Source: Candidatus Electronema aureum
Lineage (GTDB): Bacteria > Desulfobacterota > Desulfobulbia > Desulfobulbales > Desulfobulbaceae
NCBI GenBank assembly: GCA_004284765.1
Contig: NQJD01000002.1
Coordinates: 1-32,000, forward strand
Reading direction: 5' to 3'
Length of the DNA: 32,000 bases
Positions 16,124 through 32,000 of the stretch are shown piece after piece. Made by a program: the position numbers and the translations under genes. The notes beneath the pieces were generated by a model. It was not told where the DNA came from. It made no database searches and saw only the letters and a list, made by a program, of their open reading frames with translations. The stretch's first letter is position 1. Each line of letters starts with the position of its first letter.

Positions 16124-16914
16124 CGTTGCCACAGGGGAGCTTTTTTTTCCCGCACTAAAAAAATATCTTTGAGAACAGTCTCTAATTTTTCTTCATCCCG
16201 CATTGGCGTGATGACTCCGCCTCGGACCACTGAGATTTCTTGGGTTTCTTCGGACACCGCCAAAATCACCGCGTCAGTCATTTCAGAAAGCCCCAGTGCT
16301 GCTCGATGCCGCATCCCGTAGCGCTTGTCGATGCTGAGATTTTTCGATAAAGGCAGTACACAGGCGGCAGAATGAATTTTTCCTTTCTTGATTACTACCG
16401 CGCCGTCGTGTAACGGCGATTTAGTCAGGAATATTGCCACTAACAGCTCTTGAAGCAGCTTGCTGTCGATAATGAAGCCAGTTTCTACATATTCCTGCAA
16501 GCCAGTTTCACGCTCAATGATAATCAACGCACCGATACGCCGCCGTGACAAACTTACTACAGCGGAGATGATCTGGGTGAGGTCATCAGCAGCGATATTG
16601 CTACTTTTTAAAAAGGGCGTTTTGCCCATTTCGGTTAAAGCGCGACGGATGTCATCTTGAAAAATGATCACCGTGATCAGCAAAATTGAACTAAGCAAAG
16701 AACGCAGCAACAACTGGAGTGCCAGCAAGTCCAGAGCAGTCGAAAGAAAATAAAGCAGCGCGATGACCAAAGCACCGGCCAGCATTTGCACCGCCCTCGT
16801 TCCCCGAATCAGAATGATAATACGGTAAACGATGAACGAGACGATCAGAATATCAGCGATATCCTGCCATCTAAAGGAGCTGGGGAAGCTGAACGTGCTG
16901 AACAAATCGGGCAT
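16099..16914 (-). CDS. cdaA: Diadenylate cyclase (c-di-AMP synthase), membrane-bound
   Basis: Three N-terminal TM helices with IRGTRAVQML. DAC domain motifs RRIGALIIIER, PLHDGAVVI, GMRHRAALGLSE.TDA..LAVSEET. ATG 16914 gives a length and N-terminus matching characterised CdaA; the ORF extends to 16977. Confidence 0.9.
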   Translation of the reverse strand: MPDLFSTFSFPSSFRWQDIADILIVSFIVYRIIILIRGTRAVQMLAGALVIALLYFLSTALDLLALQLLLRSLLSSILLITVIIFQDDIRRALTEMGKTPFLKSSNIAADDLTQIISAVVSLSRRRIGALIIIERETGLQEYVETGFIIDSKLLQELLVAIFLTKSPLHDGAVVIKKGKIHSAACVLPLSKNLSIDKRYGMRHRAALGLSEMTDAVILAVSEETQEISVVRGGVITPMRDEEKLETVLKDIFLVREKKAPLWQRWIKKKRP

Positions 16915-17103
16915 GAATATAAAGGCAGCAGAAGCAAAGCAAGCTGGAACATTTTTTGCAGGGTGAAAAATTGGCATTTTTTTTATAACATGTTACCCTG
17001 ATTCTGAACAGAACAAAGCGGAGTAACCTACAATTTTTTTCAGCGCAGGATACACAATAGGGCTGCTCAGAGTTCTGCAAAAATTACGTCTGCTCATTTT
17101 AAT

Positions 17104-18192
17104 ATGCACACCATCACCTCATTCCGTGCCGGGCTTCTTCCTTGGTTTACCGAACATCAGCGGCCTTTGCCTTGGCGCAAGGATTATCAGCCCTATCAGA
17201 TCTGGATTGCTGAGATTATGGGCCAGCAGACCCAGATGGAACGGGTTGTGGTCTATTTCCAGAGCTGGATTCAACAGTTCCCAGACATCCGCGCCTTGGC
17301 CGCTGCTTCAGAGCAAGAAATTTTCAAGGCTTGGGAAGGGTTGGGGTATTACAGCCGGGCGAGGAATCTCCGCAAGACTGCCGAGCTGCTTGTCCGCGAC
17401 CATCACGGCGAGTTGCCCAACGAAGAGGCAGCACTACTGGCTCTGCCCGGTATCGGGCCGTACACGGCAGCAGCGATTCTCTCTATCGCCTTCAACCAAC
17501 CAGTGCCGTTGCTGGATGCCAATGTGGAGCGAGTGCTGTGTCGAGTGGAAGATATTGATTCACCGCCTAAACAAAGCGTAACGCGAAAGCAGCTGCTCCA
17601 GCTTTGCGCGGAACTGCTGCCGCCAAATGAGCCGCGCAATTTCAATCAGGCTCTGATGGAGTTAGGTGCGCTCATCTGCACGCCGAAAAATCCGACCTGC
17701 GCCGCCTGTCCAGTGCGGGAATGCTGCCGCGCCTTCGCTGCTGGGACAGTTAATCAGCGGCCTGTTTTAGTCAAAAAGCCGGATAAAATCAATATTATCA
17801 TGGCATGTGGAATTATCGAACAGGACGGACGATTCTACATTCAGCAGCGGAGAGAGGAGGATGTCTGGGGCGGACTGTGGGAATTTCCCGGAGGAAGGCT
17901 CAAAGAGGGCGAAACACCAGAGCAAGCGGCAGCACGGGAAATTGCCGAAGAAACGGAATTTCGGGTGATTCATCTGCGTCCTTTCACCACGGTAGTGCAT
18001 CATTACACCAAACACCGAGTGACGCTGCATTCATTTTTTTGTAACTTACAGAACGAACAGTCAACGGAGCCGGTCTTACATGCAGCCAGTCAGTTTCGCT
18101 GGGTTAATCAAAAAGAATTAGACAGCTTTGCTTTTCCATCTGGTCATCGTCAGTTGATCAAAAATATGGCAACATATATATTTGACGCATGA
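17104..18192 (+). CDS. mutY: A/G-specific adenine DNA glycosylase
   Basis: HhH-GPD region (LPGIGPYTAAAI), [4Fe-4S] loop C-x6-C-x2-C-x5-C (CTPKNPTCAACPVRECC), and a C-terminal MutT-like domain (GLWEFPGG). Confidence 0.93.
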   Translation: MHTITSFRAGLLPWFTEHQRPLPWRKDYQPYQIWIAEIMGQQTQMERVVVYFQSWIQQFPDIRALAAASEQEIFKAWEGLGYYSRARNLRKTAELLVRDHHGELPNEEAALLALPGIGPYTAAAILSIAFNQPVPLLDANVERVLCRVEDIDSPPKQSVTRKQLLQLCAELLPPNEPRNFNQALMELGALICTPKNPTCAACPVRECCRAFAAGTVNQRPVLVKKPDKINIIMACGIIEQDGRFYIQQRREEDVWGGLWEFPGGRLKEGETPEQAAAREIAEETEFRVIHLRPFTTVVHHYTKHRVTLHSFFCNLQNEQSTEPVLHAASQFRWVNQKELDSFAFPSGHRQLIKNMATYIFDA

Positions 18193-18806
18193 AAATTACT
18201 CTATCCATTTTTTGGATTTGTTGGTGTGCTTTGCACAGTCTGCTGATTTCCGCTCCGGTTAATGACTGGCTCCAACGAAAAGGCGGCGTTGTACGCGGCA
18301 CCCACCGGATAGCCTATTCGTTGTTTTCCGTCCTAACGCTGATTCCGCTGCTTTGGTATCAATACAGTCTGCCACAAGAGGTGGTTTTTTCTTGGTCAGA
18401 CTGGCTACGCATTCCGCAGGCAATGCTACTACTCTATGCGCTGATCATGTTGCACGGTGGATATCTGGTTTATAACATGGGGCATTTGCTCGGCTTCAGC
18501 CAGTGGCGGAGCTGGCGGCAAGGAAGAGAAAATCCGGCTTTACCGTTCTCGTGCGAGGGGGTGCTGCGCTACGTTCGCCACCCTTGGTACAGCAGCGGTC
18601 TGCCGATTTTATGGACAGTCGGCCCGATTACCGATGCCAACCTTTTTACCCGGATTATCCTCAGTCTTTACCTTGTCATCGGCACGTTATTGGAAGAACG
18701 AAAGCTGCTGCATGAGATAGGCGAATCGTACCGCAGTTACTGCCGACAAGTACCAATGCTCATTCCTTGGAAGGGGAGAGTGAAGGTGCGCCTTTCCTCG
18801 GAATAA
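18189..18806 (+). CDS. Membrane methyltransferase, ICMT/PEMT-like family
   Basis: Polytopic protein with RYVRHPWYSSG and LEERKLLHEIGESYRSYCRQVPMLIPW, the C-terminal signature of isoprenylcysteine carboxyl / phospholipid methyltransferase-like proteins. Start overlaps the mutY stop (ATGA). Confidence 0.7.
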   Translation: MKITLSIFWICWCALHSLLISAPVNDWLQRKGGVVRGTHRIAYSLFSVLTLIPLLWYQYSLPQEVVFSWSDWLRIPQAMLLLYALIMLHGGYLVYNMGHLLGFSQWRSWRQGRENPALPFSCEGVLRYVRHPWYSSGLPILWTVGPITDANLFTRIILSLYLVIGTLLEERKLLHEIGESYRSYCRQVPMLIPWKGRVKVRLSSE

Positions 18807-18902
18807 ATCTGCCAAAGTCCGCATGATTCTTGCAGCATCGGCCTTGATGTGGTAAGTCTCTGTGTTGGCACAATTTTAATCTTTCAAAAAGGAGATGTTG
18901 CG

Positions 18903-20075
18903 ATGAAACGTTGCTTTACCGCGCTCTGTGCGCTGGCGTTCTGTTTTCCCTTGGCTTCCTGTCGATCCGACAGAAAAACCGTGATCAAGGTAGGCATTAA
19001 CGCCCCGATTACTGGCGATATTCCCAAGGTCGGCGAAGGGACTAAATATGCAGCAGAGTTGTGGCTTGAGGACATAAATAAAGCAGGTGGCATTGAGGTC
19101 GGCGGGGTGAAATACCCGGTTGAGTTAGTGATTGAAGACAGCGAATCCAAAGCCGAATCAGCGGTTAAGGCCAGCACGAAGATGATCACCCAAGATGAAG
19201 TGTTGGTCATCATCGGGCCGCAGGCTTCCAAAGAGGCTATTCCAGCGGGTTCGGTGGCTAACGACAAGCAGACCCCGATGATCAGCCCGTGGTCAACCAA
19301 CCCAGACACCACCGCAAATCGGCCTTATGTTTTCCGCGCCTGTTTCCTTGACCCCTTTCAAGGGCCGGTGCTGGCCAATTTCATCAGTGACGAGTTTAAA
19401 TTCACCAAAGCGGCAGTGCTGTACGACGTGGCCAGCGATTATCCTAAAGGCTTGGCGGAATTCTTCAAGAAAGCCTGGGAAGAAAAGCACGGTGCTGGTT
19501 CCGTGGTCGCTTATGAGAGCTTCACCACCAAGGACACCGATTTCAGCTCTCAGTTGACTAAGATTATCCGCTCTGGCGCAGAAGTGCTGTTCACGCCGCA
19601 ATATTACAACGAAGTGGCTTTGATCGTGCAGCAGGCCAAGGCACTCGGTTGGAAAAGTCCGGTGATCGGCAGCGACAGCTGGGGTTCTGCTGAGACCGTG
19701 CAGCTCTGCGGCGAAGCCTGTTATGGTCAATTCTTCAGCACCCACTATGCTGCGGCTGGAGCGCAAGGGGCAACCAAGGCGTTTATCGACCGCTACAAGA
19801 CCAAAAACGGCTATGTGCCAGATGACGTGGCCGCACTGACGTGGGATGCGCTGCGACTGGCGCAGACCGCCATTGAATCTTCAGGTAGCCTCAGCGGTGA
19901 TATCAAGAAAGATCGGACAGCGGTGCGCGATGCGTTAGCCAAAGTGAAAGATTTTGACGGCATTACCGGCAAGATGACCTTTTCTGGCACTGGCGACCCG
20001 ACCAAATGCGCTGTGATTGTTAAGATCAGCGAGAAGGGAGAGTACGAATTCTACAAGTCAGTTTGTCCTAAGTAA
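18903..20075 (+). CDS. ABC transporter substrate-binding lipoprotein, LivK/branched-chain amino-acid type
   Basis: ATG 18903 preceded by AAAGGAGA. Signal plus lipobox (FPLASC). The IKVGINAPITGD... and ...IIGPQAS.. pattern is typical of Peripla_BP_6. No permease or ATPase genes are adjacent. Confidence 0.85.
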   Translation: MKRCFTALCALAFCFPLASCRSDRKTVIKVGINAPITGDIPKVGEGTKYAAELWLEDINKAGGIEVGGVKYPVELVIEDSESKAESAVKASTKMITQDEVLVIIGPQASKEAIPAGSVANDKQTPMISPWSTNPDTTANRPYVFRACFLDPFQGPVLANFISDEFKFTKAAVLYDVASDYPKGLAEFFKKAWEEKHGAGSVVAYESFTTKDTDFSSQLTKIIRSGAEVLFTPQYYNEVALIVQQAKALGWKSPVIGSDSWGSAETVQLCGEACYGQFFSTHYAAAGAQGATKAFIDRYKTKNGYVPDDVAALTWDALRLAQTAIESSGSLSGDIKKDRTAVRDALAKVKDFDGITGKMTFSGTGDPTKCAVIVKISEKGEYEFYKSVCPK

Positions 20076-20081
20076 ACCTAT

Positions 20082-20121
20082 AAAGCAATGCGGATAACAA
20101 GAGCTGCATTGCTTTATTCTT
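20082..20121 (+). terminator. Probable rho-independent terminator after the binding-protein gene
   Basis: 10-bp stem AAAGCAATGC / GCATTGCTTT (20082..20091 and 20106..20115), 14-nt loop, then ATTCTTC. The large loop lowers confidence. Confidence 0.5.
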
Positions 20122-20147
20122 CAAAAGAAGAAAATTTATTGAGCGAT

Positions 20148-21242
20148 ATGATTCAGCAACGTATTGACAAATTGCAAGCAGCTCTTCGGGGCCGCAATCT
20201 TGATGCTTTTTTGGTTACTGAACCAGCCAATCGGCGTTATCTGAGTGCTTATACCAGCACTGACCACGGTATTCAGGAAAGCTCTGGGGTGCTGCTGATT
20301 CCAAAAAAAGGCAGACCGTGGTTGCTAACCGATTCTCGCTTTGAGCTACAGGCCAAAGAGGAGACGCAGGGCTTCACCGTTGAGCTGTACAAAAAGGGGC
20401 TGTTCGTTCTGCTGAAAACGCTGCTGGCTGGGCTGGGTGCGCGGCGGTTAGCCTTTGAGAGTCATTATTTTCTTCATGCCGCTGTTGGCAGAATGGAAAA
20501 AGTCTTGGGCAACGATGTTGAGCTGGTGCCTGTTACTAACTTGGTTGAGCGAATGCGGCTGATCAAGAGCGAGGAAGAAATCGGTCGATTAAAGAAAGCT
20601 GTCCTGTTGAATGAGCGGGTTTTTCAGCAGGTTCACAGCACGGTGGTTCCGGGTATGACTGAGATTGAAATTGCCCTGACCATAGAACGCATTATGCGGG
20701 AAATGGGTGCAGAACGACCGAGTTTTGAAACCATTGTTGCCTTTGGTTCCAACGCAGCCAAGCCGCACGCTGTACCCTCAGACCGTGTACTGAAAGAGGG
20801 TGAAATTGTCTTGATCGACATGGGCTTAGTGCTGGAAGGCTATTGCTCTGACATGACCCGTACTTTTACGGTTGGGAAGCCGGACAACCTTTTTATTGAT
20901 CGGCTGCGGGTAGTGCGCCAAGCGCAGTTAGCCGCGACCAAGGCTCTTCGTGCTGGTGCAGTGTGCCGCGAGGTAGATTTGGCGGCTCGGCAGATTATCG
21001 TTGATGCGGGCTATGGCAGCTGCTTTGGCCACGGCTTAGGCCACGGAGTTGGCCTTGCTGTCCATGAGGCCCCGCGCCTCAGTTCCCGAAACAGGAAACA
21101 GCTGCGAGCTGGAATGATTGTCACTATTGAGCCAGGCATTTATTTTCCCGGCTGGGGTGGTATTCGCTTGGAAAACATGGCTGTGGTACGCGAAGACGGC
21201 TGCGAGCTGTTCAATGAAGACCTAACTGGGCTAGATTTATGA
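20148..21242 (+). CDS. M24B family Xaa-Pro aminopeptidase/dipeptidase
   Basis: Creatinase-like N-domain plus a pita-bread domain with metal ligands in DMG...CSDMTRT, HGLGHGVGLAVHE and TIEPG..IRLEN. The ORF-track start at 20088 lies inside the upstream terminator hairpin, so ATG 20148 (MIQQRIDKLQ) is preferred. Confidence 0.85.
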   Translation: MIQQRIDKLQAALRGRNLDAFLVTEPANRRYLSAYTSTDHGIQESSGVLLIPKKGRPWLLTDSRFELQAKEETQGFTVELYKKGLFVLLKTLLAGLGARRLAFESHYFLHAAVGRMEKVLGNDVELVPVTNLVERMRLIKSEEEIGRLKKAVLLNERVFQQVHSTVVPGMTEIEIALTIERIMREMGAERPSFETIVAFGSNAAKPHAVPSDRVLKEGEIVLIDMGLVLEGYCSDMTRTFTVGKPDNLFIDRLRVVRQAQLAATKALRAGAVCREVDLAARQIIVDAGYGSCFGHGLGHGVGLAVHEAPRLSSRNRKQLRAGMIVTIEPGIYFPGWGGIRLENMAVVREDGCELFNEDLTGLDL

Positions 21243-21260
21243 TGCGTTTCGCTGCTGACT

Positions 21261-22037
21261 CTATCGGTGATGCGTGCTACGAGCGACGAAATATAAAGGT
21301 TGATAGGTTAGGCTGACCCCGCTGGCTGTGCTGAACCGTTGGCGGTATTCTGCGGAGAAATGCTGGAGCCGAGTACGACTCCACGGGCTGCGGTTGATGG
21401 CGTTGACTCCGGTTTGACGCAGATGGTGGAGGACTTCCTGTGGGCTGGTGAAATAGAGGATTTCCTGCTGGCTGCTGCTGTGGAGCAACTTGAAATGCCT
21501 ACGGACAATAGTTTCAATTTCCGGCAGACTAAGATACTCCAAGCCGATGCCGGTTAGTTCGTCTATTTCTCGCAGATTGTCTGGCCCGTAGAGTGAAAAA
21601 GCCAAGGTGCCACTAGGCTCTAAGGCAACGGCCAATTGCGCCAGCAGGTGGTCGAGATCGTGAAGCCAATGAAACGTCGATGAGGAAATAATCAGGTTGA
21701 ACGTGCCCGGCAGCGGTAGGTTTTCGATGTCGCCGGGCAGCAATCGTATCGACGGAGCAAGAGCGGCGATATTCATGCGAGCGGCAAAGTCCGGCACGAT
21801 ATCATTAAGAACTAATTCCTTCATTCCTTTGACCCGCTCGATGAGTCGGCGGGTGAGCAAACCAGTGCAGCAGCCTATTTCCAGCACTCGCTGCGGCGGT
21901 GTTGTTCCACCGTGCTGTGCCAGCAGATCAAGCAGATGCTCTGCTGTCCGTTGCTGAATCAAAGCTTGCTGCTCGTAGCTGTTCGCTGCTCGTTGAAACT
22001 GGCGACAAAGGAGCTGTTTGTCAATGCACTGGGGCAT
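21261..22037 (-). CDS. bioC: Malonyl-ACP O-methyltransferase (biotin synthesis) / class I SAM methyltransferase
   Basis: The N-terminal F.RAA.SYEQQA.IQ pattern, SAM motif VLEIGCCTG, GDIENLPLP and the C-terminal LTYQPLYFVA parallel E. coli BioC recalled from memory. No other bio genes are in the window. Confidence 0.65.
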   Translation of the reverse strand: MPQCIDKQLLCRQFQRAANSYEQQALIQQRTAEHLLDLLAQHGGTTPPQRVLEIGCCTGLLTRRLIERVKGMKELVLNDIVPDFAARMNIAALAPSIRLLPGDIENLPLPGTFNLIISSSTFHWLHDLDHLLAQLAVALEPSGTLAFSLYGPDNLREIDELTGIGLEYLSLPEIETIVRRHFKLLHSSSQQEILYFTSPQEVLHHLRQTGVNAINRSPWSRTRLQHFSAEYRQRFSTASGVSLTYQPLYFVARSTHHR

Positions 22038-22067: not shown

Positions 22068-22096
22068 TTGAACAATTTTATTCATTTTGGTACAAT
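22068..22096 (+). promoter_or_regulatory. Sigma70 promoter with extended -10 for the toxin-antitoxin pair
   Basis: TTGAAC (22068..22073), 17-nt spacer ending in TGG, TACAAT (22091..22096), i.e. a TGnTACAAT extended -10, 39 nt upstream of the antitoxin ATG. Confidence 0.55.
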
Positions 22097-22134
22097 CAGC
22101 TCTATTGAAGATACTTCCACCGAAGGAGGATGTT

Positions 22135-22371
22135 ATGATTGTTACTATTTCCAAGGCAAAAATCGATCTTTCAAAGTTAGTGAAGAGGGCCTGTCATGGT
22201 GAAAGAATCATTATTACCAAAAACAATCTACCGCTTGCCGAGATAGTGCCGCACAATGTCCAAGGAAAGAGAATGCTTGGGACTTTTGCAGGGAAAGTTG
22301 CGTTGCCGGATAATATAATGGATGAGGATGAAGAGGTAAACGAAATGTTTTATGGCAAAGCTGAGAAATAA
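22135..22371 (+). CDS. Type II antitoxin, Phd/YefM family
   Basis: ATG 22135 preceded by GGAGGA. MIVTISKAKIDLSKLVKRACHGERIIITKNNLPLAEIVP is a typical Phd/YefM N-domain, followed by an acidic C-terminal tail. Located immediately upstream of a PIN toxin. Confidence 0.8.
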   Translation: MIVTISKAKIDLSKLVKRACHGERIIITKNNLPLAEIVPHNVQGKRMLGTFAGKVALPDNIMDEDEEVNEMFYGKAEK

Positions 22372-22389: not shown

Positions 22390-22761
22390 ATGAAGATACT
22401 TATTGATACGCATATTTTTTTGTGGGCGATAGCCGATCCAGCCAGAATCAGTGCTGATAAGAGGAAAAGACTGGAACAACTTACAAATACTGTCTATGTG
22501 AGTTCAATCACTATTGCTGAGATTATGATCAAGTCATCCATTCAGAAATTGAAGATTGAATATGATCCTCTTGATGCAGCCAAGCAGAGCGGTTTTCAAT
22601 TCCTCAATTTCCGTGCTGAAGATGCCCTGTTGCTTCTCAATTTACCCTTTCATCATAAAGACCCATTTGACAGGATGCTGATAGTTCAAGCCATTGCTAA
22701 CGACTGTTATTTGATGACAGACGATAGCAAGTTTCGTGCGTATGAATGCCGTCTTCTATAG
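22390..22761 (+). CDS. vapC: Type II toxin, PIN-domain ribonuclease (VapC family)
   Basis: MKILIDTHIFLW (first acidic residue), SSITIAEI, the DPFDRMLIVQA and LMTDD motifs of the PIN/COG3744-type toxin. 18 nt after the antitoxin stop. Confidence 0.85.
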   Translation: MKILIDTHIFLWAIADPARISADKRKRLEQLTNTVYVSSITIAEIMIKSSIQKLKIEYDPLDAAKQSGFQFLNFRAEDALLLLNLPFHHKDPFDRMLIVQAIANDCYLMTDDSKFRAYECRLL

Positions 22762-23946
22762 CTTAACCCGCCCGTTGCGCTTCATCACCCGCTTAAACCC
22801 ATCCCCAGCCTTCCTGATTCGCTCCTCGTCCACGCAGAAAGCCAATCGGATATGTCCCGGTCTACCAAACCCCTGTCCAGGCACAGCCAATATCTTTTCC
22901 TCCAGCAGCAGTTGGCAGAATTCCACCTCATCAATCGGGGTTTTAGGGAAGAGATAAAAGGCTCCCTTGGGCCGGACGTACTCAAAGCCCGCCTCGTCGA
23001 GAATTTTGCAGAAGATATCCCTCCGCCGTGCATAGATAGATACATCTGCGCTCACATCCTGAAGCTGCGCTACCGCCCGCTGCATCAACGCTGGAGCATT
23101 GACAAAACCAAGGATGCGGTTGGCTAACGTCATAGCATTAAGCAAGGCAGTCTTATCCGGCATATCAGGATGCACGGCTAAATAACCGATGCGCTCGCCG
23201 GGCAAAGATAAGTCCTTAGAATACGATGAAACCACGATGGTATTGACGCTGGCAGCCATAACCGAAGGCACTTCCAATCCGTCATAAACAATCTTGCGGT
23301 ACGGCTCATCAGCGATGATATACAGCGTGCGGCCAAACCGTTCCCCCGCGTGGTCTAACAGCTTGCCCAGCGCGACTAACGATTCTGCGCTATACACTTG
23401 GCCAGTGGGATTGTTGGGACTATTCATCAACACCACCTTGGTCTTCTCGCTCAAAGCTGCCTCGATAGCCGCCACATCGAGCTTGAATTCCTCGTCCGCT
23501 GGCACAATCTTGCTCACTCCGCCGTGGTTATCAACGTAAAAGGTATATTCGACAAAGAACGGACTGATCAGGATAACCTCATCGCCGGGATCAAGCAGGG
23601 CTTTCATCGCTACATTGAGCGCACCAGCAGCTCCGCAGGTCATGAGAACATCGCTTGCGCCGATGCCCGCGCCTTGTTCTCGTGCCAAACGAGCCGCTAC
23701 CGCCTCTCGCACGTGAGGATAACCGCTGTTCGGCATGTAGGCGTGCATTCCCGGTGCAGTTGATTGCGCCAGTTCAGTCAGCACGTGCAGAAATTGAGGC
23801 GGAGGCGGTACATCCGGGTTGCCAAGGCTGAAATCAAAGACATTCTCTGCACCGAACTGAGCCTTCATTCGGGTACCTTCCTCAAACATCTTACGAATCC
23901 AAGAGGATTTCTCGGCAAAGGCCAACATTTTCTGAGAAGCTGTCAT
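22756..23946 (-). CDS. Pyridoxal-phosphate-dependent aminotransferase, class I/II (Asp/Ala aminotransferase-like)
   Basis: 396 aa with FSLGNPD, NSPNNPTG, the PLP-lysine motif SYSKDLSLPGERIGY, and the C-terminal IRLAF. Confidence 0.9.
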   Translation of the reverse strand: MTASQKMLAFAEKSSWIRKMFEEGTRMKAQFGAENVFDFSLGNPDVPPPPQFLHVLTELAQSTAPGMHAYMPNSGYPHVREAVAARLAREQGAGIGASDVLMTCGAAGALNVAMKALLDPGDEVILISPFFVEYTFYVDNHGGVSKIVPADEEFKLDVAAIEAALSEKTKVVLMNSPNNPTGQVYSAESLVALGKLLDHAGERFGRTLYIIADEPYRKIVYDGLEVPSVMAASVNTIVVSSYSKDLSLPGERIGYLAVHPDMPDKTALLNAMTLANRILGFVNAPALMQRAVAQLQDVSADVSIYARRRDIFCKILDEAGFEYVRPKGAFYLFPKTPIDEVEFCQLLLEEKILAVPGQGFGRPGHIRLAFCVDEERIRKAGDGFKRVMKRNGRVKL

Positions 23947-24134
23947 GGTGTGCTTGTCGTTTATAATGGTTTTTCATTGAACGGAGAGTGCCGACTATGC
24001 TGCTGGGCTGGTGCATAAAGATTCTCCTCCTCTCAAGCTGGGCTTTGCCGCATCAAGCAGACAATCTGACCGCCAACAGCTCTGTTCTTCGCAGCCTGAA
24101 ACTATAGCTGAAGCAGCATAAAGTGAACTTGAAT

Positions 24135-24205
24135 GTCATTCCGAGCAAAGCGAGGAATCTCCTCTTCGTCCTTGGCGTGAGATTTCTCGCTCCGCTCGAA
24201 ATGAC
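24135..24205. repeat. REP-like imperfect inverted repeat
   Basis: GTCATTCCGAGCAAAGCGAGGAATCTC (24135..24161) and GAGATTTCTCGCTCCGCTCGAAATGAC (24179..24205) are reverse complements with 4 mismatches, separated by 17 nt. Intergenic location. Confidence 0.75.
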
Positions 24206-24251
24206 AGATACGACGGTTCAAAGTATGTTGCTCTGGCTATACTCTCTATCA

Positions 24252-24384
24252 GAGACAGTATAGTGTCTCTTGCGGAGTCACTACGGTGTCTCGGCTGGAG
24301 ACACTATGGTCACTCCACTGGAGACACTACGGTATCTCCCAAGGAGACACTATGGTGTCTCGGTTGGAGTCACTATGGTGTCTC
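24252..24384. repeat. Six tandem 23-bp units, each an 18-bp hairpin palindrome (consensus GAGACACTATGGTGTCTC) plus a variable 5-nt spacer
   Basis: Units start at 24252, 24275, 24298, 24321, 24344 and 24367, an exact 23-bp phase. Stems are GAGACAC/GTGTCTC with loop TAYG. The 5-nt sequences following units 1-6 are TTGCG, GGCTG, CACTG, CCAAG, GGTTG, CGCTT. The array ends 19 nt from the stop codon of the MmeI-like gene. Confidence 0.9.
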
Positions 24385-24403
24385 CGCTTTGACACGGCGT
24401 ACC

Positions 24404-27187
24404 CTATCCATCAGCCTTCTTCCTGCGGCCCGGCTTCTTCCCTTTTGCCGCAAGAGGCAGCAGGCTGGCGGTGTATTTCTGGTACAGATCAAAGAGGAAG
24501 GCCACCCGCTCGGCCTCGGATTTGAAGTCACGCCGACCGTAGGTAGCATCCACCGCCTTGTCTAACGCGCGATGTGCCTTGAGCAGCACGGGCGGCATGG
24601 TCAGCGGGTCGTAGAGATCAGCGAGCGAGGAGTCCGGGAACTGAGCGCGGGCATTGAGCACGGTCTGCGCCGCAACTTCCACCGCCTGCTGCTGCTTATC
24701 GCTTAGGCTTGGCGGCCACGGGAACGTATTGTAGGTGAATTTTACGGAATATCGTATATCGTTTTTAAGCCGTCCAGAGGTGATATTCACCCAAGCCTTG
24801 TGCATGATGCTGGCGAGTACACCTAAACTGTAAAGACTAGCAGATGGAACGAGCTGCAAATCATTGGCAGCCACAACCTCGCCTGACAAATAGCCAATTG
24901 GCAGGTACTGTCGGTTCTCGGAAGAGGTACGGGGAATAGCGAGATAGTCACCATCCGGCTGGCGGTTTTCCGTAAATAATGTTGGAATGTTCGCTTTCTC
25001 TTTGGTGGCTTCCTTTGGACTCTGTTGCCGCATACAGCGAACTGCCTTAACTCTCTCAAGAACCAGCGGCATTCTCTGTAATTCGTCGGGCGGACAATCA
25101 ACTAGCCAGAGGCAATAGCGAAGATCGTTATGAATGAATCCTTCAGCTCCGAGATAGGGTCTTATCCACTTTGCAGCAAGTGGTTCAGCTGAAAGAAACT
25201 CGTCTTTCTCTTCTGGTGTGAAGATTAGGTTGCCACCATCTGCCGGAATGCTGCCGTTGACAATCTCCTGAACTAGACAGATTGGCTTCATCCTCCCATA
25301 AACAATAATATCAGGCCCGTCAATCAGATAAGGACTGATGTTCTTTGCTTGAATGGAATGCGCCTCGCCGCGAATGTCCTCATACTCGAACAGCAGCTTC
25401 GGCTGCACCTCCTCGCAGGCAAAGCCGACAATCACGCAATGCACGGCGGCCTTGCCCCGCGCCTCGTTATTCCATTGAAAGGTGCGGTGGGCGAAGAATA
25501 TACGGCAGCCCTGTGAGAGCAGCCAATTCCACAGCACACTGACCTGCTCGCCTTGACAGATGGAGTTCGTGGAGACAAAGGCGCAGCGGATGGCGGTGTT
25601 CCGCAGCATCTGCGCCGCCTTCACATACCAGGCCGCAACAAAGTCGAGCAGCCCTGCATTCTTGATGCCAGCGAAGACGGCATTCACGTCGGCCCGCTGC
25701 GCTTCGCTCATGAACTTTGCGCCCACAAACGGCGGATTGCCCATGATGTAACTCAGTCGCTCCACCGGAACTACCTCGTTCCAGTCAAGGCGGAGAGCAT
25801 TGCCGCAGATGATGTTCGGACTGGTTTTCAGCGGAATGCGGGCGAAGTAGAGACCGAACTCCTCGGAAACCTGCTGGTTCATCTGGTGATCGGTCAGCCA
25901 CAGAGCCACCTGCGCAATCTGCGCGGGGAACTCCTCCAGCTCAATGCCGAAGAACTGATCAACATTCAGGCGGATGAGACCGCGCACATCCAAGCTCTGC
26001 TGCACCTTCTCAACCTCGTTCCGCACGCTGGTGTGGAGGACGCGGAGAATGTCCAATTCGAGCAGACGCAGCTCACGATAGGCAATAACGAGAAAGTTGC
26101 CGCAGCCGCAGGCCGGATCAAGGAAGCTCAGGCTGCGCAGCTGCTGATGGAACTCCTCCAGCTTCTTGCGATTGCCCTTCACCTTGCCGAACTCCTCGCG
26201 CAGGCGGTCAAGAAAGAGCGGCCTGATCAGCTTGAGGATGTTCTGCTCGCTGGTGTAGTGCGCGCCGAGGTTGCGGCGGGCCTGCTTGTCCATGATTGAC
26301 TGGAACAGCGAGCCGAAGATAGCAGGCGAGATGCGCGACCAATCTAAACCGCAGCAGTCGAGCAGACTCTGGCGCATGACCGTGTCAAAGGAAGCGGGTG
26401 AAAGAACTTCCTCGAACAGCCTACCGTTGACAAAGGGAAAGGCGGCAAGCTGCTCGTCAAGGTTCTTTAGGCGGTGGTCTTCCGGGCTGTTGAGGATGTG
26501 GAAGAAGACCGAGAGCTGCGGGCCAAGATCGCTGCCGTCCTCGCCTGTGCGCTGCTCGATGAAGTCCTGAAACTGCTGCTGTTGAAAGATGCCGGTGTCC
26601 TCGGCAAAGAGACAGAAGAGCAGGCGGACAAGATAGACCTCCAGCGCATGGCCGACGTAGCCGGTCTCCTTCATCAGGTCGTGCAGACGGCCCATGCGCT
26701 CCGCCGCCTTGATGTTCACCGGGTCCTGCTCGCGCACGGCGTGGGTCTGGTAGCCCGCGATAAAGCCGAAGAGTCGCAGGTTCTTGTGCAAGTCCTTCAG
26801 CGCAAAGTCGTGGCGGCTGTCTTCCTCCAGATCATAGAGCCGGAAGCGGGCGAAGTCGGAAACAAGGATGCAGCGCGGCAGCTCGCGCTCCTTCAGGCCG
26901 GGGAAATAGCCAAGTGCCTGCTGATGGGCGCGGTCAAGGTCTTTGCCGCGTGACTTGTGTTCAATCAGCAGCATCCCTTTCCAGAGCAGATCAATGTAGC
27001 CGTCGCGGCCATCCAGCTTATTCACCCGCTGCTCAAAGCTGGCCACCCTGCGTCGTTCAATGCCGAAGACGTGAAAGAACGCATTCCAGAAGGTCTTGGC
27101 TTCTGCATCTTCAGAAGCCTCGTCCGCCCATTCGCGGGAGAAGGCGAGAGCGCGGGATTTGATTTCGTTCCAGCTTAAAGGGGGCAT
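24404..27187 (-). CDS. MmeI-family Type IIL restriction-modification enzyme (fused endonuclease, N6-adenine methyltransferase and target-recognition domain)
   Basis: The N-terminus is collinear with MmeI as recalled (LSWNEIK..A..FS..W, FGI.RRRVASFE, IDLLWKGMLLIEHKSRGKDL with D66-x9-E76-x-K78, LPR..LVSDF.RFRL, FGFIAGYQT). SAM motif FLDPACGCGNFL (26090..26125). Catalytic NPPF in IMGNPPFVGAKF (25727..25738). The 927-aa length is close to that of MmeI. Confidence 0.9.
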   Translation of the reverse strand: MPPLSWNEIKSRALAFSREWADEASEDAEAKTFWNAFFHVFGIERRRVASFEQRVNKLDGRDGYIDLLWKGMLLIEHKSRGKDLDRAHQQALGYFPGLKERELPRCILVSDFARFRLYDLEEDSRHDFALKDLHKNLRLFGFIAGYQTHAVREQDPVNIKAAERMGRLHDLMKETGYVGHALEVYLVRLLFCLFAEDTGIFQQQQFQDFIEQRTGEDGSDLGPQLSVFFHILNSPEDHRLKNLDEQLAAFPFVNGRLFEEVLSPASFDTVMRQSLLDCCGLDWSRISPAIFGSLFQSIMDKQARRNLGAHYTSEQNILKLIRPLFLDRLREEFGKVKGNRKKLEEFHQQLRSLSFLDPACGCGNFLVIAYRELRLLELDILRVLHTSVRNEVEKVQQSLDVRGLIRLNVDQFFGIELEEFPAQIAQVALWLTDHQMNQQVSEEFGLYFARIPLKTSPNIICGNALRLDWNEVVPVERLSYIMGNPPFVGAKFMSEAQRADVNAVFAGIKNAGLLDFVAAWYVKAAQMLRNTAIRCAFVSTNSICQGEQVSVLWNWLLSQGCRIFFAHRTFQWNNEARGKAAVHCVIVGFACEEVQPKLLFEYEDIRGEAHSIQAKNISPYLIDGPDIIVYGRMKPICLVQEIVNGSIPADGGNLIFTPEEKDEFLSAEPLAAKWIRPYLGAEGFIHNDLRYCLWLVDCPPDELQRMPLVLERVKAVRCMRQQSPKEATKEKANIPTLFTENRQPDGDYLAIPRTSSENRQYLPIGYLSGEVVAANDLQLVPSASLYSLGVLASIMHKAWVNITSGRLKNDIRYSVKFTYNTFPWPPSLSDKQQQAVEVAAQTVLNARAQFPDSSLADLYDPLTMPPVLLKAHRALDKAVDATYGRRDFKSEAERVAFLFDLYQKYTASLLPLAAKGKKPGRRKKADG

Positions 27188-27205
27188 GGGGCTTTTATTA
27201 TTTGT

Positions 27206-30200
27206 TTATGCCTGCTGCGCATCTTCTTCCGACAAATACGCTCTCAGCCAAGGCCAAAGCTGGTTTTCCTGCACTTTGCAACCCACCAGATTTTCCTGAA
27301 GTTTAAAGTGGTTCTTCTCATTTTTACGGGTTGCCTTCATTATAGAGTCCCGGCAGGCTCGGTAATGCTCAAACCGTTCATAAGGTACCTCCGGCGAGTA
27401 AATCATTTCTTCTCCCCAGAGCCAGAACCTTCGGTCAACGCATCGTAAGAACAGGCGAAATGCCGCCCATGCCTGAAGCGTTTCTTCGTGGGTGATAAAA
27501 CGTTCAAACCAGTGATGCGCCCATTGATTGCGTTCATGGATTATCTTTGCTTTTCTGGCGCAATCGTGCAGCCAAGACGGTTTCTTTTCCGCTATCCAAG
27601 CGTCCAGCCGTTCACCCGCTGAATGATCATCCATGAAGCCAAGCAGGAAAAGGCCCTTGGCGTTATCCAAAGCAAAATCAGATTGGAGATATTCGGTGAT
27701 GGTTCCTTCAAGCCATTCATTCCTGTCATGCTTTTGCGCAAGGAAGGCTATTTCAAAGAGTTCATCGTCGTAAAGGGCATTATCCAGCAGAGATTTTCTG
27801 AGATTGCAAACGGTCTCTGAATTTCCTGCCCGAAAAAGGCCGAATAACAGGTTAAGTATTTCAGTTGTATAATCAATCAATCGGAGCCTGTTTTCACGAT
27901 GAAGCCGCCGAAAAAGCCGTTCTCCCTGTTTCGGTTGATGCTCCAATAGGATTTCGCATAAGGCTTCATAAAATCCCCGGCAACGAACAAGCATTTCGGT
28001 ATCTTGTTTCAAGGCGGTTATCAGCCATTGGTTGACATATTCAGGACAGGCAGCAACAACTTCAGCAAGTGCATCTATACGGAATTTTTCTATGAACAGA
28101 TTGTTTCCTGTTTTTCTGAGAGAAACGGCGAAGTTATTCACCTTGTCTTTTACTTGTTGATTTTTGCTGGTTTGCAACTCAAAGTTCATCGAATCCTGAA
28201 AGCTGGTTTCTTTTTCGTCATCTTTCCCAGAACTTCGGTAAGAGCTTCCGCCCCAAATGGATGTCGGTGAAACAATTTTGAACCCAAGGTTGTCATTTGT
28301 ATGCAAAGAGTAATCGCATTCATGCTCCGGTTCAGGAAGATTGATTTTGACTGCAACCTGATCTGCCTCTATTGGGATTTCAAACGGTTGCATTGCAACG
28401 CTGTGCCAAAGTTGATGAAGAGTCTTCCCGTATGCAGCGATTTCATCGTTCTTGCAGTCTCGTTTTTTGACAGCATACCCCAGCAGTTGAAGAGAAACAC
28501 GCTCCAATATTTCGGAAAAAGGCAAGTCCAGACCATGCTCGGCCAATAATCTGCTGCCCCAATACCGTTCAAAATCGCTGCCAGCCTTAGCTGAACCCCA
28601 ATTGCTCTTCAAGATTGACTGAATTCCTTGCTTATTTTTGGTACAAGTAAAAAGTTCCAGTGCATGGTGGATACGGGCAAATCTGTTATCAATTTCCGAA
28701 AATTCAGGAAGCAACTCCATTATCTGCTGGTCAATCTCAAGGAGAGAAGGAAGGAGATTGATAAGAAATTTAAGCCGTTCTGATGGCATTTGTATGTTCG
28801 CAAGTTTTTCAGTTACACAAGCTAATTTTGAAGAATCATCAATGTTTTTGACAAAAGGAAACCTTCCTCTGCACCATGTGTAATCATCTGAACAGCGTTC
28901 TTTTATGAGATCAAGTTGCTGATTCAAGGCTTTTCCTCTTGACACACACGCAAAAAGGATTGTTTCCGTAAAGAACGCATCATTGTGCCCGGAAATCTCG
29001 GATAGACTGCTTCGCCATGCCTCTTCCACGGCTGAACGCGCCTTTTCACTCAGAATCATAATATGCTCATAGATGAACATCGACAGCAACCAGCGCGACG
29101 ATTGCTCTCTTTCCGGGAAAAGACAGGCAAGCTCATTAATGATTTCAGAAAATCGTTCCGGGCAATAAGAGCATAATGCAGGTTCAATATTGCGAATGTC
29201 TATATCTTCTCCAGTTTGCCCGTTCTCATTTGATTTAAAATATTTCAAGTCAATCTCTTTTCCTGTCCGCATAAACAGCAGCTTGAATTTTTTCGGTACT
29301 GTACATGATGGATCTACAGCAACATCCCTTAGTTTAGAAACAATGGCATCGATATTAGCAGGAGAGCTTTCGAGAAAGCCTAAACATTCCAAATAATATT
29401 CACGAGTCCAGTTGTATAATAAATTTATACAAGGATACTCTTTGTAAAGCTGGTACATCAAATTTTCCTCTTTGTATTCAGAAGGGATTTTTTTGTCCAT
29501 CTGCCAAGATGTTTCCGTTCCTAAGGCTCGCAGGAGAAAGACAGCAGTTCTCTGCGCAACACATTGAGAATTTTTTAAAAGCTCTTCTATTTCTATCAAG
29601 ATGTTCTTTTCAATATCATCCTTCGCTGTACGCAATACCCAAGAAAGCTGCTCGTAAAAATCAGGGTAGCCCATGACCATCCCAGCGACAACACCCGTTA
29701 TCATAGCCCGAATATATGGAGCGCGGGGCTGCTGCGAAATAATAGCGAGAGCAAAACGGGATAGCCTCAGAAGCCCTTCGTCTTCTGTCCGGGTCAGGCG
29801 AAAACCGAACAGCTCGCACTGATCTGCTGAAAAATCATGCCCCAGTGCCCGCCGTACATCCCGCCTGCCTTTTTCGAGTTTGCTTTGATCGTCACGGGCA
29901 TGTCTGCCTTTATGCCCGTCATGATGGACAAATCCCATCCAGCGTTCAAACGTAGGTATCAGGATTTGCTGGACAGTTCCCTGTCCGCCGAATTTCAAAA
30001 AACCTGACATGAAGGCATTTTGCAACCCCATGTTATTTGCATTTTCCGACCATTCCTGCTCCATCATCCGCAGATAGATTTCAGGTCGAACCGGGAGATA
30101 GGATGTAATGCGCCACCAATCATCTTCTTTTATATTCCTCCCGGAAACCCACGCATTGAACAACGCCAGATGAATTCCTTCCGGCCATTCCTTTTTACCA

Positions 30201-31924
30201 AGCGCATGATAAAGAGCCATAGCGCAGATAGAAACTTTAATGTCCATATCCGGCTGCGGCTCTTGGAAATGCGCTATTACTTCAGCAAGATTATTTTGCG
30301 CTTCCAGCGCATCTGCCACCTCATAAGCAAGCAGCAATCCCAGACCAAGAATCAGATAATCTCGGTTGATTGTCCATCCGCTACCATGTTTTTGAAGAAC
30401 ACGGCCCGTACTTAACTCGGTCAGCAGAGAGTTGCTGTCACCATATCCAGATAGCTCAGTCTGCAATTCTCCCCGGAAAATTCTTTTGCTTTGCTGTATC
30501 CGATTGCTTAGATTGCAGATCAATTCCTGAAATGCTTCGTGGCTCAAGGAATTACCCAGCTTGCGCTCTTGCTTATCCCGCCAGTCTTCGTAAATCAGAC
30601 GCTCTCTGGTGATTTCGCCTTCGCTGTCCATGCGCTCCCACAGGCGTACAGTCAGATCAAAGTAGCGGGGAATACGAAGCAGATCGATGAGGTTTTTATC
30701 AAAATGATCAGGAGTCAGATTCTTGACAGCAAGTGCCGACTTTAATTCCGCATCGTTGTATGGGCCTAATGTGAAGACAGCGGCTCCTACAGAAGACAGA
30801 TGTTCATCCCAGAATTTTTTGCGGCAAGTCATCAGCACTGCTGTACGATTGCACCACGGTTCCACAGCAAATTTTGCCAAAAGCTGCCGCCATTCCATAT
30901 CAGGACGCTCATTCAAGCCGTCCATGACAAGGAGAAAAAGCGGCGTGTCGCCAGCCGGACGTTCCAGCCAACGCTGCAACCGTTTCTGCCAGTATCCTTC
31001 GTATGGTTCTTTTAACTGCTTCGCAAGAATTTCAGGCAAGAGAATGTCAAATTCTTTTAAATCAGCCATTCCGGAGGGAAGGAAGATGACAGGAAAACCA
31101 TCTGACAGCTTGCCGTAGAGCCAATCTACAACCGCCCAGGTTTTGCCGTCGCCTTCTTCGCCAAGAACAACAAAAAACTTGTGCTGCTCATGCCAATTGG
31201 CAAACCAGTTGTCCAGAGCTTCCTGCGCTGCTTTGCGGGGAATGAAAAACTCTCCTTCAGCCCGCACCGCCAAGTTCTGTGAAAAGGCCGCTTTTGACTC
31301 ATCCTTATTCCGCAACCGTCCGCACAGCCAAGCATTTTGCTCTTCCAGCCAGTGATCATAACCGATATTCTGCGCGGCCAGCTCCTGCTTGAGTTTTTCA
31401 GACTTGTCCGAAACCTCTTTATTTTCTTTTAGTGATTGTAGATAGCTGGAAAATTCATCAGCTTCTTGTTTGTCAGCGAAATATTTTTGCAGATGCCTGA
31501 CGGTGATCTCCGGTGCATAAGCACATAATGCGGCAAGAAAGCTCTTCTCTTCCCCTTGAGCATCTATAGAAAAATAAGCAATCCCAGAGTCCTGACTGAA
31601 TTGCCGAAGTGGATTATGATGCTGGTCACTCAACCGCTTGGTGGTGACAACCATCCAAAGATCAGGCTTTAAACTGTTCTGGGCGGCAGCGGTGAATTTA
31701 GCTAACAGCTCATCACTTTTGAGCTTTGTTGCATCATCGTATCTTTTGCATTCCGCCATCAAGAAATTGCTGGCCATGTCCCGGCCTCCCTGATCGCCTG
31801 AACGCGAAAGATGAAAACGCTGCCCGGTCAGCCGCTCAAGCAGCTTGGCGACAAGTCCTTCAAAGCCATCCTGTCCGGCGGCGGGCTGTTTCCAGATGAT
31901 TTGCAGAAATTGTTCAAAATTCAT
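27206..31924 (-). CDS. Giant STAND-type defence protein: Mrr-like PD-(D/E)xK nuclease + NACHT-like P-loop NTPase + ~1100-aa unassigned helical C-terminal region
   Basis: Nuclease: FEGLVAKLLERLTG...SGDQGGRDMASNFLMAECKRY (D..ExK, 31745..31780). Walker A: VVLGEEGDGKTW (31139..31162). Walker B: PLFLLVMDGLNE (D at 30920..30922). Start ambiguous: ATG 31924 (MNFEQFLQ, begins right at the nuclease domain) or ATG 31987 (the ORF-track start, adding 21 odd residues); neither has a clear SD. The upstream region is cut by the window end. Confidence 0.8.
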   Translation of the reverse strand: MNFEQFLQIIWKQPAAGQDGFEGLVAKLLERLTGQRFHLSRSGDQGGRDMASNFLMAECKRYDDATKLKSDELLAKFTAAAQNSLKPDLWMVVTTKRLSDQHHNPLRQFSQDSGIAYFSIDAQGEEKSFLAALCAYAPEITVRHLQKYFADKQEADEFSSYLQSLKENKEVSDKSEKLKQELAAQNIGYDHWLEEQNAWLCGRLRNKDESKAAFSQNLAVRAEGEFFIPRKAAQEALDNWFANWHEQHKFFVVLGEEGDGKTWAVVDWLYGKLSDGFPVIFLPSGMADLKEFDILLPEILAKQLKEPYEGYWQKRLQRWLERPAGDTPLFLLVMDGLNERPDMEWRQLLAKFAVEPWCNRTAVLMTCRKKFWDEHLSSVGAAVFTLGPYNDAELKSALAVKNLTPDHFDKNLIDLLRIPRYFDLTVRLWERMDSEGEITRERLIYEDWRDKQERKLGNSLSHEAFQELICNLSNRIQQSKRIFRGELQTELSGYGDSNSLLTELSTGRVLQKHGSGWTINRDYLILGLGLLLAYEVADALEAQNNLAEVIAHFQEPQPDMDIKVSICAMALYHALGKKEWPEGIHLALFNAWVSGRNIKEDDWWRITSYLPVRPEIYLRMMEQEWSENANNMGLQNAFMSGFLKFGGQGTVQQILIPTFERWMGFVHHDGHKGRHARDDQSKLEKGRRDVRRALGHDFSADQCELFGFRLTRTEDEGLLRLSRFALAIISQQPRAPYIRAMITGVVAGMVMGYPDFYEQLSWVLRTAKDDIEKNILIEIEELLKNSQCVAQRTAVFLLRALGTETSWQMDKKIPSEYKEENLMYQLYKEYPCINLLYNWTREYYLECLGFLESSPANIDAIVSKLRDVAVDPSCTVPKKFKLLFMRTGKEIDLKYFKSNENGQTGEDIDIRNIEPALCSYCPERFSEIINELACLFPEREQSSRWLLSMFIYEHIMILSEKARSAVEEAWRSSLSEISGHNDAFFTETILFACVSRGKALNQQLDLIKERCSDDYTWCRGRFPFVKNIDDSSKLACVTEKLANIQMPSERLKFLINLLPSLLEIDQQIMELLPEFSEIDNRFARIHHALELFTCTKNKQGIQSILKSNWGSAKAGSDFERYWGSRLLAEHGLDLPFSEILERVSLQLLGYAVKKRDCKNDEIAAYGKTLHQLWHSVAMQPFEIPIEADQVAVKINLPEPEHECDYSLHTNDNLGFKIVSPTSIWGGSSYRSSGKDDEKETSFQDSMNFELQTSKNQQVKDKVNNFAVSLRKTGNNLFIEKFRIDALAEVVAACPEYVNQWLITALKQDTEMLVRCRGFYEALCEILLEHQPKQGERLFRRLHRENRLRLIDYTTEILNLLFGLFRAGNSETVCNLRKSLLDNALYDDELFEIAFLAQKHDRNEWLEGTITEYLQSDFALDNAKGLFLLGFMDDHSAGERLDAWIAEKKPSWLHDCARKAKIIHERNQWAHHWFERFITHEETLQAWAAFRLFLRCVDRRFWLWGEEMIYSPEVPYERFEHYRACRDSIMKATRKNEKNHFKLQENLVGCKVQENQLWPWLRAYLSEEDAQQA

Positions 31925-32000
31925 AGCTGGTGAGCGAATAGATGATTCCTGACAGCAAGAGAGACTGACGGCAAGCCATCCTATCATGTGGCGGCAGGCA

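Follow-up and report, generated by a model that had tools for sequence, protein, structure and literature searches.

The locus and its reading frame

The window analyzed here is a stretch of 32,000 nucleotides from Candidatus Electronema aureum (GenBank assembly GCA_004284765.1, contig NQJD01000002.1, positions 1 to 32,000). At its high end, the minus strand carries an uninterrupted open reading frame (ORF) of 1,593 codons, located at 27206..31987 by ORF analysis of the window, which probably encodes an antiviral receptor of the STAND class: a nuclease head, a nucleoside triphosphatase (NTPase) switch, and a long helical sensor in a single chain. The original prediction, made from the DNA letters alone, gave no strand for this ORF and a length of ~1590 amino acids. 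The reading frame proved real, but the protein is likely to be somewhat shorter. Because the alignments of all listed homologues (120/120) begin at ORF residue 22, and because a protein with 100% identity to the ORF product in a protein search (TAA75907.1, Candidatus Electronema aureum, called "NACHT domain-containing" in UniRef) has 1,572 amino acids, M22 (31924) is the most likely start. Measured against homologues of ~1,560 amino acids, the ORF is of full length, and it is intact.

Please note that "annotated" residue numbers below equal the ORF number minus 21. The 21 codons ahead of M22 (31925..31987, MIGWLAVSLSCCQESSIRSPA) have a counterpart in 0 homologues and, judged by these alignments, are probably untranslated 5' sequence outside the protein.

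The gene and its parts are as follows.

27206..31924, minus strand: 1,572-residue STAND gene; likely start M22 at 31924, stop codon 27206..27208, ORF reaching upstream to 31987
31550..31924, minus strand: Mrr-like PD-(D/E)xK nuclease effector, annotated residues 1-125, with D49, E58, and K60
31235..31549, minus strand: helical linker from effector to NTPase, annotated residues 126-230 (model helices 129-214)
30725..31234, minus strand: P-loop nucleotide-binding domain, annotated residues 231-400
31139..31162, minus strand: Walker A motif GEEGDGKT, ORF 276-283, with K282
30908..30934, minus strand: Walker B motif LLVMDGLNE, ORF 352-360, with D356
30815..30829, minus strand: sensor-1-like motif TCR, with invariant R368
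30365..30724, minus strand: helical domain 1 and winged-helix domain, annotated residues 401-520, with a conserved PRYFD motif at 30656..30673
28415..30364, minus strand: main body of the alpha-solenoid sensor, annotated residues 521-1170
28082..28414, minus strand: optional insert, ORF ~1192-1302, a small beta hairpin and a disordered polar linker
28133..28246, minus strand: polar linker SSYRSS...KVNN, ORF 1248-1285
27209..28081, minus strand: C-terminal helical module of the sensor, annotated residues 1282-1572

A nuclease head that relatives exchange

The catalytic residues of the head, D70, E79, and K81 in the ORF (codons 31778..31780, 31751..31753, and 31745..31747), stand where the original prediction had put them, within the motifs GGRD (ORF 67-70) and AECK (ORF 78-81). 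They correspond to annotated D49, E58, and K60 and, together with C59, are invariant in the aligned homologues. Two AlphaFold2 models were built from family alignments. In the N-terminal one, the head is an alpha-beta-beta-beta-alpha-beta core in which D49 opens strand 2 and E58-C-K60 lies in strand 3, that is, the restriction-endonuclease core fold, as modeled, with the catalytic D...(D/E)xK on strands 2 and 3.

The motif context, GxQxGRD...ECKRY, is similar to that of Mrr_cat. When 30 family members were scanned individually against Pfam, Mrr_cat was matched by six at E<=0.01 (best E 8e-5). The family consensus reached 12.9 bits against a cut-off of 21 for this model (PF04471; E 0.12, model positions 6-97 of 115), and the query alone gave no match to it. 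Between the modeled fold, the invariant D and ExK, and these six members, the claim of an Mrr_cat-like PD-(D/E)xK effector holds.

The head is not a fixed part of the protein. Among the relatives that have the NTPase, 181 of 223 carry the Mrr-like head, and the remainder carry TIR_2, CHAT, caspase, trypsin-like, or EAD10 heads; the individual Pfam scan of 30 members found TIR_2 in five, caspase in one, and a trypsin-like domain in one. These alternative heads are joined within or just ahead of the helical linker (annotated 126-230), and homology to head-swapped relatives starts at ORF residues 158-235. The exchange of effector heads on a constant NTPase and sensor is a hallmark of antiviral STANDs, and it bears out the three-part Avs/bacterial NACHT layout that had been proposed for this protein.

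The NTPase switch

Both Walker motifs, GEEGDGKT with K282 and the Walker B stretch with D356, occur at the ORF positions claimed beforehand. Across 120 sequences, annotated residues G255, E257, G258, G260, K261, D335, N338, and R368 are invariant. Since the catalytic and NTPase motif residues do not vary, their occurrence is no matter of chance matches. The TCR motif that includes R368 presumably resembles the sensor-1 motif T[ST]R of NACHT proteins.

The N-terminal model covers annotated residues 1-739, with a predicted local distance difference test score (pLDDT) of 86.1 and a predicted template modeling score (pTM) of 0.77. It runs from the nuclease core through the helical linker, the P-loop domain, the helical domain, and the winged helix to the start of the solenoid, and in it annotated residues 401-520 comprise helices and then a beta hairpin (510-519). 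In a Foldseek search of the PDB, the top matches of these 739 residues were portal-bound Avs4 (8dgf, E 3e-8) and terminase-bound Avs3 (8dgc, E 1.7e-6), and after them came NAIP/NLRC4, NLRP3, Dark, CED-4, NLRP9, NOD2, RPP1, and the AVAST5 filament. Scattered among these matches, and predominant lower in the list, are AAA+ proteins (ORC/Cdc6 and clamp loaders). The alignments with Avs4, Avs3, and the nucleotide-binding leucine-rich-repeat receptors (NLRs) cover annotated residues 401-520. Placement of the central domain among helicases or ABC ATPases had been named in advance as the outcome that would speak against the prediction; the best structural matches are Avs4, Avs3, and the NLRs instead.

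The Walker motifs and the helical and winged-helix extension place the protein in the STAND NTPase superfamily, whereas its membership of the NACHT clade is borderline. Pfam NACHT (PF05729) is matched by 20 of the 30 members at E<=0.01 (best E 9e-8); the family consensus, at 25.8 bits (E 1e-5), falls just short of its 26.7-bit cut-off, and the query alone has no match to PF05729 at E<=1. The Walker B signature of NACHT proteins is D[GAS]hDE (Kibby et al.); that of the present family is DG[IL]NE, which keeps the small residue as well as the second of the two acidic ones and has the invariant N338 in the place of the first. Because of this asparagine, ATP hydrolysis may be altered. The prediction of a NACHT-like STAND switch is supported, with the caveat that the Walker B motif is not the canonical one of NACHT proteins.

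The sensor

More than half of the protein was originally described as an unassigned sensor in which no periodicity could be seen. The second AlphaFold2 model, of ORF residues 600-1593 (994 residues), has pLDDT 88.4 and pTM 0.90 and is almost wholly helical. In searches against Pfam and PADLOC models, the sensor had no significant match, only a sub-threshold one to HEAT_2 (family consensus, 23.7 bits against a cut-off of 27.7, E 5.9e-5), confined to one unit at consensus residues 1422-1461. Profile self-comparison with hhalign found no internal repeats (probability below 1%). With these repeats absent and the model a solenoid, the sequence is without periodicity, and the predicted fold is an irregular helical-repeat solenoid. 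The earlier description was right about the lack of matches and of visible repeats; it had not foreseen a HEAT-like solenoid, nor that the sensor is conserved across the family and is not peculiar to the query protein.

Foldseek returned only generic HEAT/ARM solenoids for the sensor model (karyopherins, SF3B1, and CAND1; probability 0.97-1.0), with template modeling (TM) scores of 0.13-0.22 and ~10-12% identity; no Avs sensor and no viral protein was matched in this structure search. Neither tandem HEAT units nor an internal repeat signal were found, and the similarity is one of fold class only. According to a recent survey (PMC13581612), the alpha-solenoid is the commonest type of Avs sensor.

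Conservation varies rather little along the chain. It is about the same in the first half of the solenoid and in the last 290 residues as in the NTPase, and annotated residues 861-1170 are the most divergent folded part; it is a reasonable guess that this variable middle is a specificity surface.

The one poorly predicted stretch, at about ORF 1220-1269 (pLDDT 41-67), contains the polar segment. A polar, low-complexity linker had been expected here, and it is indeed present and disordered in the model (28133..28246). Because the relatives that lack ORF ~1192-1302 (P0005-P0009, P0061, and P0105) keep the C-terminal module, this linker belongs to an optional insert of ~110 residues, the least conserved and most gapped stretch of the protein. 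Single high-scoring-pair (HSP) output from BLAST had given the appearance of a swapped C-terminal module in these same relatives. This was rejected after analysis of all HSPs, by which they are without ORF ~1192-1302 and have the same C-terminal module. The tail of another relative, P0036, resembles frameshift junk.

The C-terminal module, with pLDDT mostly 90-98, is kept in all relatives, including those without the insert. It contains the conserved aromatic motifs WAxHWF, AWAAFRLFLRCVDRRFWLW, and QLWPW, and W1451, W1486, and W1503 are invariant in the aligned homologues. It had been called rich in W, F, and H; these residues are enriched, but only mildly, relative to the whole protein (W 3.3% vs 2.8%, F 6.3% vs 5.1%, H 3.3% vs 2.4%).

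The family and its place in the databases

The first protein search gave at least 567 matches. A HMMER scan with the sensor alone gave 971 clusters at 50% identity, 618 of them at E<=1e-10, and in nearly all 971 the sensor lies at about residues 590-1560 of a protein of ~1,560 amino acids. Identity of the query to its homologues is ~31% over the full length, even in cyanobacteria. The carriers comprise Desulfobacterota, Beggiatoa relatives, Cyanobacteria, Chloroflexi, Acidobacteriota, Firmicutes, and Alpha- and Betaproteobacteria; occurrence across phyla is patchy, and members are also found on alphaproteobacterial plasmids. Public databases already name members "NACHT domain-containing" or "restriction endonuclease," the latter being the RefSeq name of one homologue.

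The best Pfam match of the query is nSTAND3 (E 0.097), and PADLOC-DB 2.0.0 gave 0 matches to it at E<=1. When a profile of 65 homologues was compared with PDB sequences, the terminase of phage Sf6 was returned (E 0.025) and nothing else; it was discarded as a chance P-loop match. A few PADLOC matches exist among the 30 members (ThsB-like TIR, caspase, and single Avs1b and Avs2 matches). As each Avs model matched at most one of the 30, these appear to come from swapped heads. By the hidden Markov models (HMMs) of PADLOC-DB 2.0.0, the family falls outside Avs1-Avs5 (AVAST). A 2026 survey (Lee et al., PMC13581612) reports 589 STAND clades and 684 sensor clusters, mostly with helical-repeat sensors, and the present family is very probably already among them.

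Genomic neighborhood

The genes around the STAND gene that need to be considered are these.

24404..27187, minus strand: complete MmeI-family type IIG restriction-modification enzyme, 927 amino acids, 19 bp downstream of the STAND gene
22087..22371 and 22390..22761, plus strand: likely toxin-antitoxin pair, the first Phd/YefM-like by eye, the second PIN (Pfam E 7.5e-15)
13712..22037: housekeeping block with phosphoglucosamine-mutase-like, YbbR, CdaA diadenylate cyclase, MutY-like, NnrU, periplasmic binding protein, M24 peptidase, and methyltransferase genes
L001 294..1658, minus strand: SLFN AlbA_2 and HATPase_c_4 protein of 454 amino acids, divergently oriented, upstream of the STAND gene and just past the high end of the window

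The MmeI-type enzyme matches all five MmeI Pfam domains and the PADLOC model REase_MTase_IIG (1200 bits). No terminator-like site is predicted in the 19-bp gap, and the two genes are probably co-transcribed. Guanine-plus-cytosine (GC) content is 42-49% across the STAND gene and ~50-59% nearby, a contrast that would fit independent arrival of the STAND and MmeI-type genes by horizontal transfer. By coordinates, it is 42-49% in 27001..32000 and 52-59% in 23001..27000, the region of the MmeI-type and aminotransferase genes.

Beyond the MmeI-type gene lie the aminotransferase gene, the Phd/YefM-like and PIN pair, and then housekeeping genes. With housekeeping genes making up the rest of the neighborhood, the defense genes amount to a small islet on the margin of a block of core genome. 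The assignment of the small antitoxin-like ORF at 22087..22371 (MIVTISKAKIDLSKLV...) as Phd/YefM-like was made by eye only. A PIN gene, with a ribbon-helix-helix partner, also adjoins a distant STAND homologue (locus L006). Past the end of the window, a contig of the same organism (L001) holds the divergent AlbA_2/HATPase_c_4 gene and a further MmeI-like fragment. Genes of the AlbA_2/HATPase_c_4 kind also adjoin homologues at loci L007, L008, L022, and L046, and they match PADLOC models associated with prokaryotic Argonautes (pAgo).

In a sister Electronema genome (L007), the STAND homologue has an intact MmeI homologue of 78% identity upstream of it and no more than a remnant downstream. At L008, in the metagenome-assembled genome of a related member of the Desulfobulbaceae, the downstream MmeI copy is truncated, and in Ca. 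Electrothrix the neighbors of the STAND homologue are unrelated. All-against-all clustering of the ORFs flanking 57 loci found no conserved partner gene. The largest neighbor cluster, that of type IIG enzymes, occurs at 5 of the 57 loci; other recurrent neighbors are type I HsdM/HsdS (3-4 loci), AlbA_2/HATPase_c_4 (4), and integrases (4). The nearest neighbors include PglX, LmuB, HEC-06, PD-T4-6, and caspase and TIR proteins. In 7 of ~48 independent lineages, restriction-modification genes are present at a distance of no more than 5 kb; the binomial P of ~8e-6 for this count is indicative only, since its null of 0.0153, given in PMC13581612 as the background for any defense gene nearby, stems from another method. 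Very large ORFs (1,300-2,460 amino acids), which are not family paralogues by BLAST, flank the homologues at loci L025, L031, L035, L038, L041, L044, and L049 and may be further large defense proteins.

What the protein may do, and what else it might be

We consider it probable, with some confidence, that the gene product is an antiviral STAND receptor of the Avs/bacterial NACHT kind, all in one chain; the original interpretation is thus supported. This reading draws on the domain identities, the invariant catalytic and nucleotide-binding residues, the kinship in fold with Avs4, Avs3, and the NLRs, the swapping of effectors, and the defense-gene neighborhood, all of them observed. The patchy spread over phyla and plasmids, the solenoid form of the sensor, and a GC content below that of the flanking housekeeping genes also speak for it. 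By the criteria of PMC13581612, namely a defense-type effector and/or enrichment of defense genes, it counts as an antiviral STAND in the broad sense.

The way in which it would work can be sketched by analogy with Avs3/Avs4 and bNACHT25. At rest, the C-terminal alpha-solenoid and the NTPase would keep the protein an inactive monomer. Upon infection, the solenoid would bind a phage-derived protein or an infection-induced cue and so free the winged-helix/NTPase lock, after which the ATP-bound NACHT-like modules would oligomerize and gather the N-terminal Mrr-like PD-(D/E)xK domains into an active nuclease. Indiscriminate cutting of DNA would then halt phage replication at the cost of the cell, and in a filamentous organism the sacrifice of one cell may shield its neighbors. 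Autoinhibition, oligomerization, DNA cleavage, and the anti-phage outcome are all borrowed from these analogues in this sketch. The trigger may, as the original prediction inferred, differ from those of known Avs proteins.

Several points weigh against this interpretation and should be kept in mind. The query alone finds nothing significant in Pfam, PADLOC, NCBIfam, or PDB sequences, and not one of the 30 members scanned with PADLOC matches an Avs NTPase or sensor model. In Foldseek, Avs4 and Avs3 are matched with low TM-scores (0.2-0.3), and the Walker B asparagine takes the place of the first of two NACHT acidic residues. The null used in the binomial calculation was drawn from a different data set as well as a different method. 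A search of IMG/VR viral contigs found no copies of the family, neither that search nor a structural search for viral matches to the sensor yielded a trigger candidate, and our literature search found no experiment reported for any family member.

It is also conceivable, although we regard it as unlikely, that the same STAND switch and nuclease respond to an endogenous signal (the state of a host chaperone or its clients, as with bNACHT25 and DnaJ, or damage, or a kin/self cue) and serve programmed death in multicellular filaments. Filamentous or multicellular organisms are numerous among the carriers (cable bacteria, Desulfonema, Beggiatoa relatives, Anaerolineae, Ca. Amarolinea, Ca. Vecturithrix, and filamentous cyanobacteria), an apparent skew, but the family is also found in unicellular Acidobacteriota, in Methylobacterium, on Sphingobium plasmids, and elsewhere. 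One member has EAD10, an adaptor typical of conflict systems of multicellular bacteria, and the PD-(D/E)xK-headed bNACHT25 does use host DnaJ (PMC12169576). That the sensor is conserved to about the same degree as the NTPase would fit a host ligand that is itself conserved; however, Avs sensors for conserved phage folds are likewise well conserved within a family, and the defense-gene neighborhood favors an anti-phage role either way. Equally to be weighed is a narrower form of the receptor reading, which we hold only tentatively and think rather doubtful. Here the protein would represent a distinct Avs/bNACHT lineage, whose irregular, aromatic-rich solenoid, with its variable middle and optional 110-residue insert, recognizes a trigger new for Avs, and whose over-representation in filamentous organisms reflects altruistic suicide protecting the filament. 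Possible triggers would then be a protein of the phages of cable or filamentous bacteria, or a host factor.

The adjacent MmeI-type enzyme raises the question of whether the protein is its functional partner, such as an NTP-driven Mrr-like (type IV-style) nuclease in a two-gene restriction module, which we judge very improbable. The idea is invited by the common strand, the 19-bp gap, and the lack of a predicted terminator, by the MmeI-like gene or remnant that adjoins the homologue in two related genomes of Desulfobulbaceae, by the unrelated type IIG enzymes beside two distant homologues (L006 and L022), and by the name "restriction endonuclease" that RefSeq gives to one homologue. Yet a type IIG neighbor is found at only 5 of 57 loci with no neighbor conserved family-wide, the Ca. 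Electrothrix neighbors are unrelated, and sister genomes have an intact STAND gene but a decayed downstream MmeI copy. Because the association is sporadic and the would-be partner decays independently, functional pairing is unlikely; moreover, MmeI-family enzymes are self-sufficient single-chain systems, and the exchange of heads for TIR or proteases would be senseless in a restriction partner. Finally, a non-immune STAND, that is, either a scaffold or a MalT/AfsR-like ATPase in signaling or regulation, with an inactive nuclease-like head, deserves next to no credence. Defense and non-defense STAND clades are intermixed in the tree of PMC13581612, and the query has no direct match to any defense model. 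On the other hand, the protein has no DNA-binding output domain, its D...ExK residues are invariant, the alternative heads are all toxic effector types, and the gene sits in a defense context.

If the antiviral receptor reading is correct, a large family of NLR-like receptors (~1,000 clusters at 50% identity) exists in cable bacteria and many other filamentous bacteria of the environment, with a confidently modeled sensor that has no match among characterized sensors. This would add one further bacterial pattern-recognition receptor, a tractable target for trigger discovery, and give Candidatus Electronema, whose phages are hardly studied, its first defined immune gene. The HMM set of PADLOC 2.0.0 misses the family.

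Comparison with known systems

Avs4 (EcAvs4 bound to phage portal, 8DGF) and Avs3 (8DGC) came out on top in the structural comparison of the N-terminal 739 residues. They share with the query family a single chain of ~1,500-2,000 amino acids, with an N-terminal nuclease, a STAND NTPase, and a long helical-repeat sensor, as well as modular effector swapping. They differ in that neither the PADLOC Avs models nor PDB sequence and profile searches revealed a relationship in the NTPase or the sensor of the query, that the query sensor model is unlike their sensors and matches generic HEAT solenoids only, and that the NTPase motifs of the query family are NACHT-like.

The bacterial NACHT proteins bNACHT25 and bNACHT32 (clade 6) have the same arrangement of an N-terminal PD-(D/E)xK DNase head, a central NACHT, and a C-terminal helical domain, and the Pfam NACHT model is matched by most members of the query family. 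In bNACHT25, which senses infection via host DnaJ, the active-site aspartate of the head is D48, and D48A abolishes defense (PMC12169576); the aspartate of the query family is at annotated position 49. The surroundings differ, with GADFVI...VICKVGK in bNACHT25 (published N-terminal fragment only) and GGRDM...AECKRY in the query, as does Walker B, which is D[GAS]hDE in bacterial NACHT proteins (Kibby et al.) and DG[IL]NE here.

Animal and plant NLRs and apoptosome proteins resemble the query in the switch fold of nucleotide-binding domain, helical domain 1, and winged-helix domain (Foldseek E 3e-5 to 1e-3), and NAIP/NLRC4, NLRP3, NOD2, CED-4, Dark, and RPP1 follow the same tripartite logic of effector, switch, and sensor. 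Sequence identity is 11-16%, however, and the query has an enzymatic nuclease head in place of a CARD, PYD, or TIR adaptor and a HEAT-like solenoid in place of leucine-rich or WD40 repeats. With the HEAT/ARM solenoids (RanBP5/Kap121/Kap123, SF3B1, and CAND1), the sensor has in common the stacked helical hairpins and weak HEAT_2 matches; it is without a detectable internal sequence repeat, and the resemblance is of fold class, not of family membership.

A broader class is reportedly that of the NTP-dependent conflict systems of multicellular bacteria set out by Kaur, Burroughs, Iyer, and Aravind in 2020, which does not define the query family as such. These conflict systems are said to be similar in their STAND core, in their swappable toxic heads, including caspase/CHAT, TIR, and EAD adaptors, and in their frequency in cyanobacteria, deltaproteobacteria, and other filamentous taxa. 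The comparison as a whole supports the view that the protein is an uncharacterized example of a known anti-phage kind (Avs/bacterial NACHT), and it leaves the concept unchanged: in architecture, in logic, and probably in mechanism, the protein follows what is already established for Avs3/Avs4 and bNACHT.

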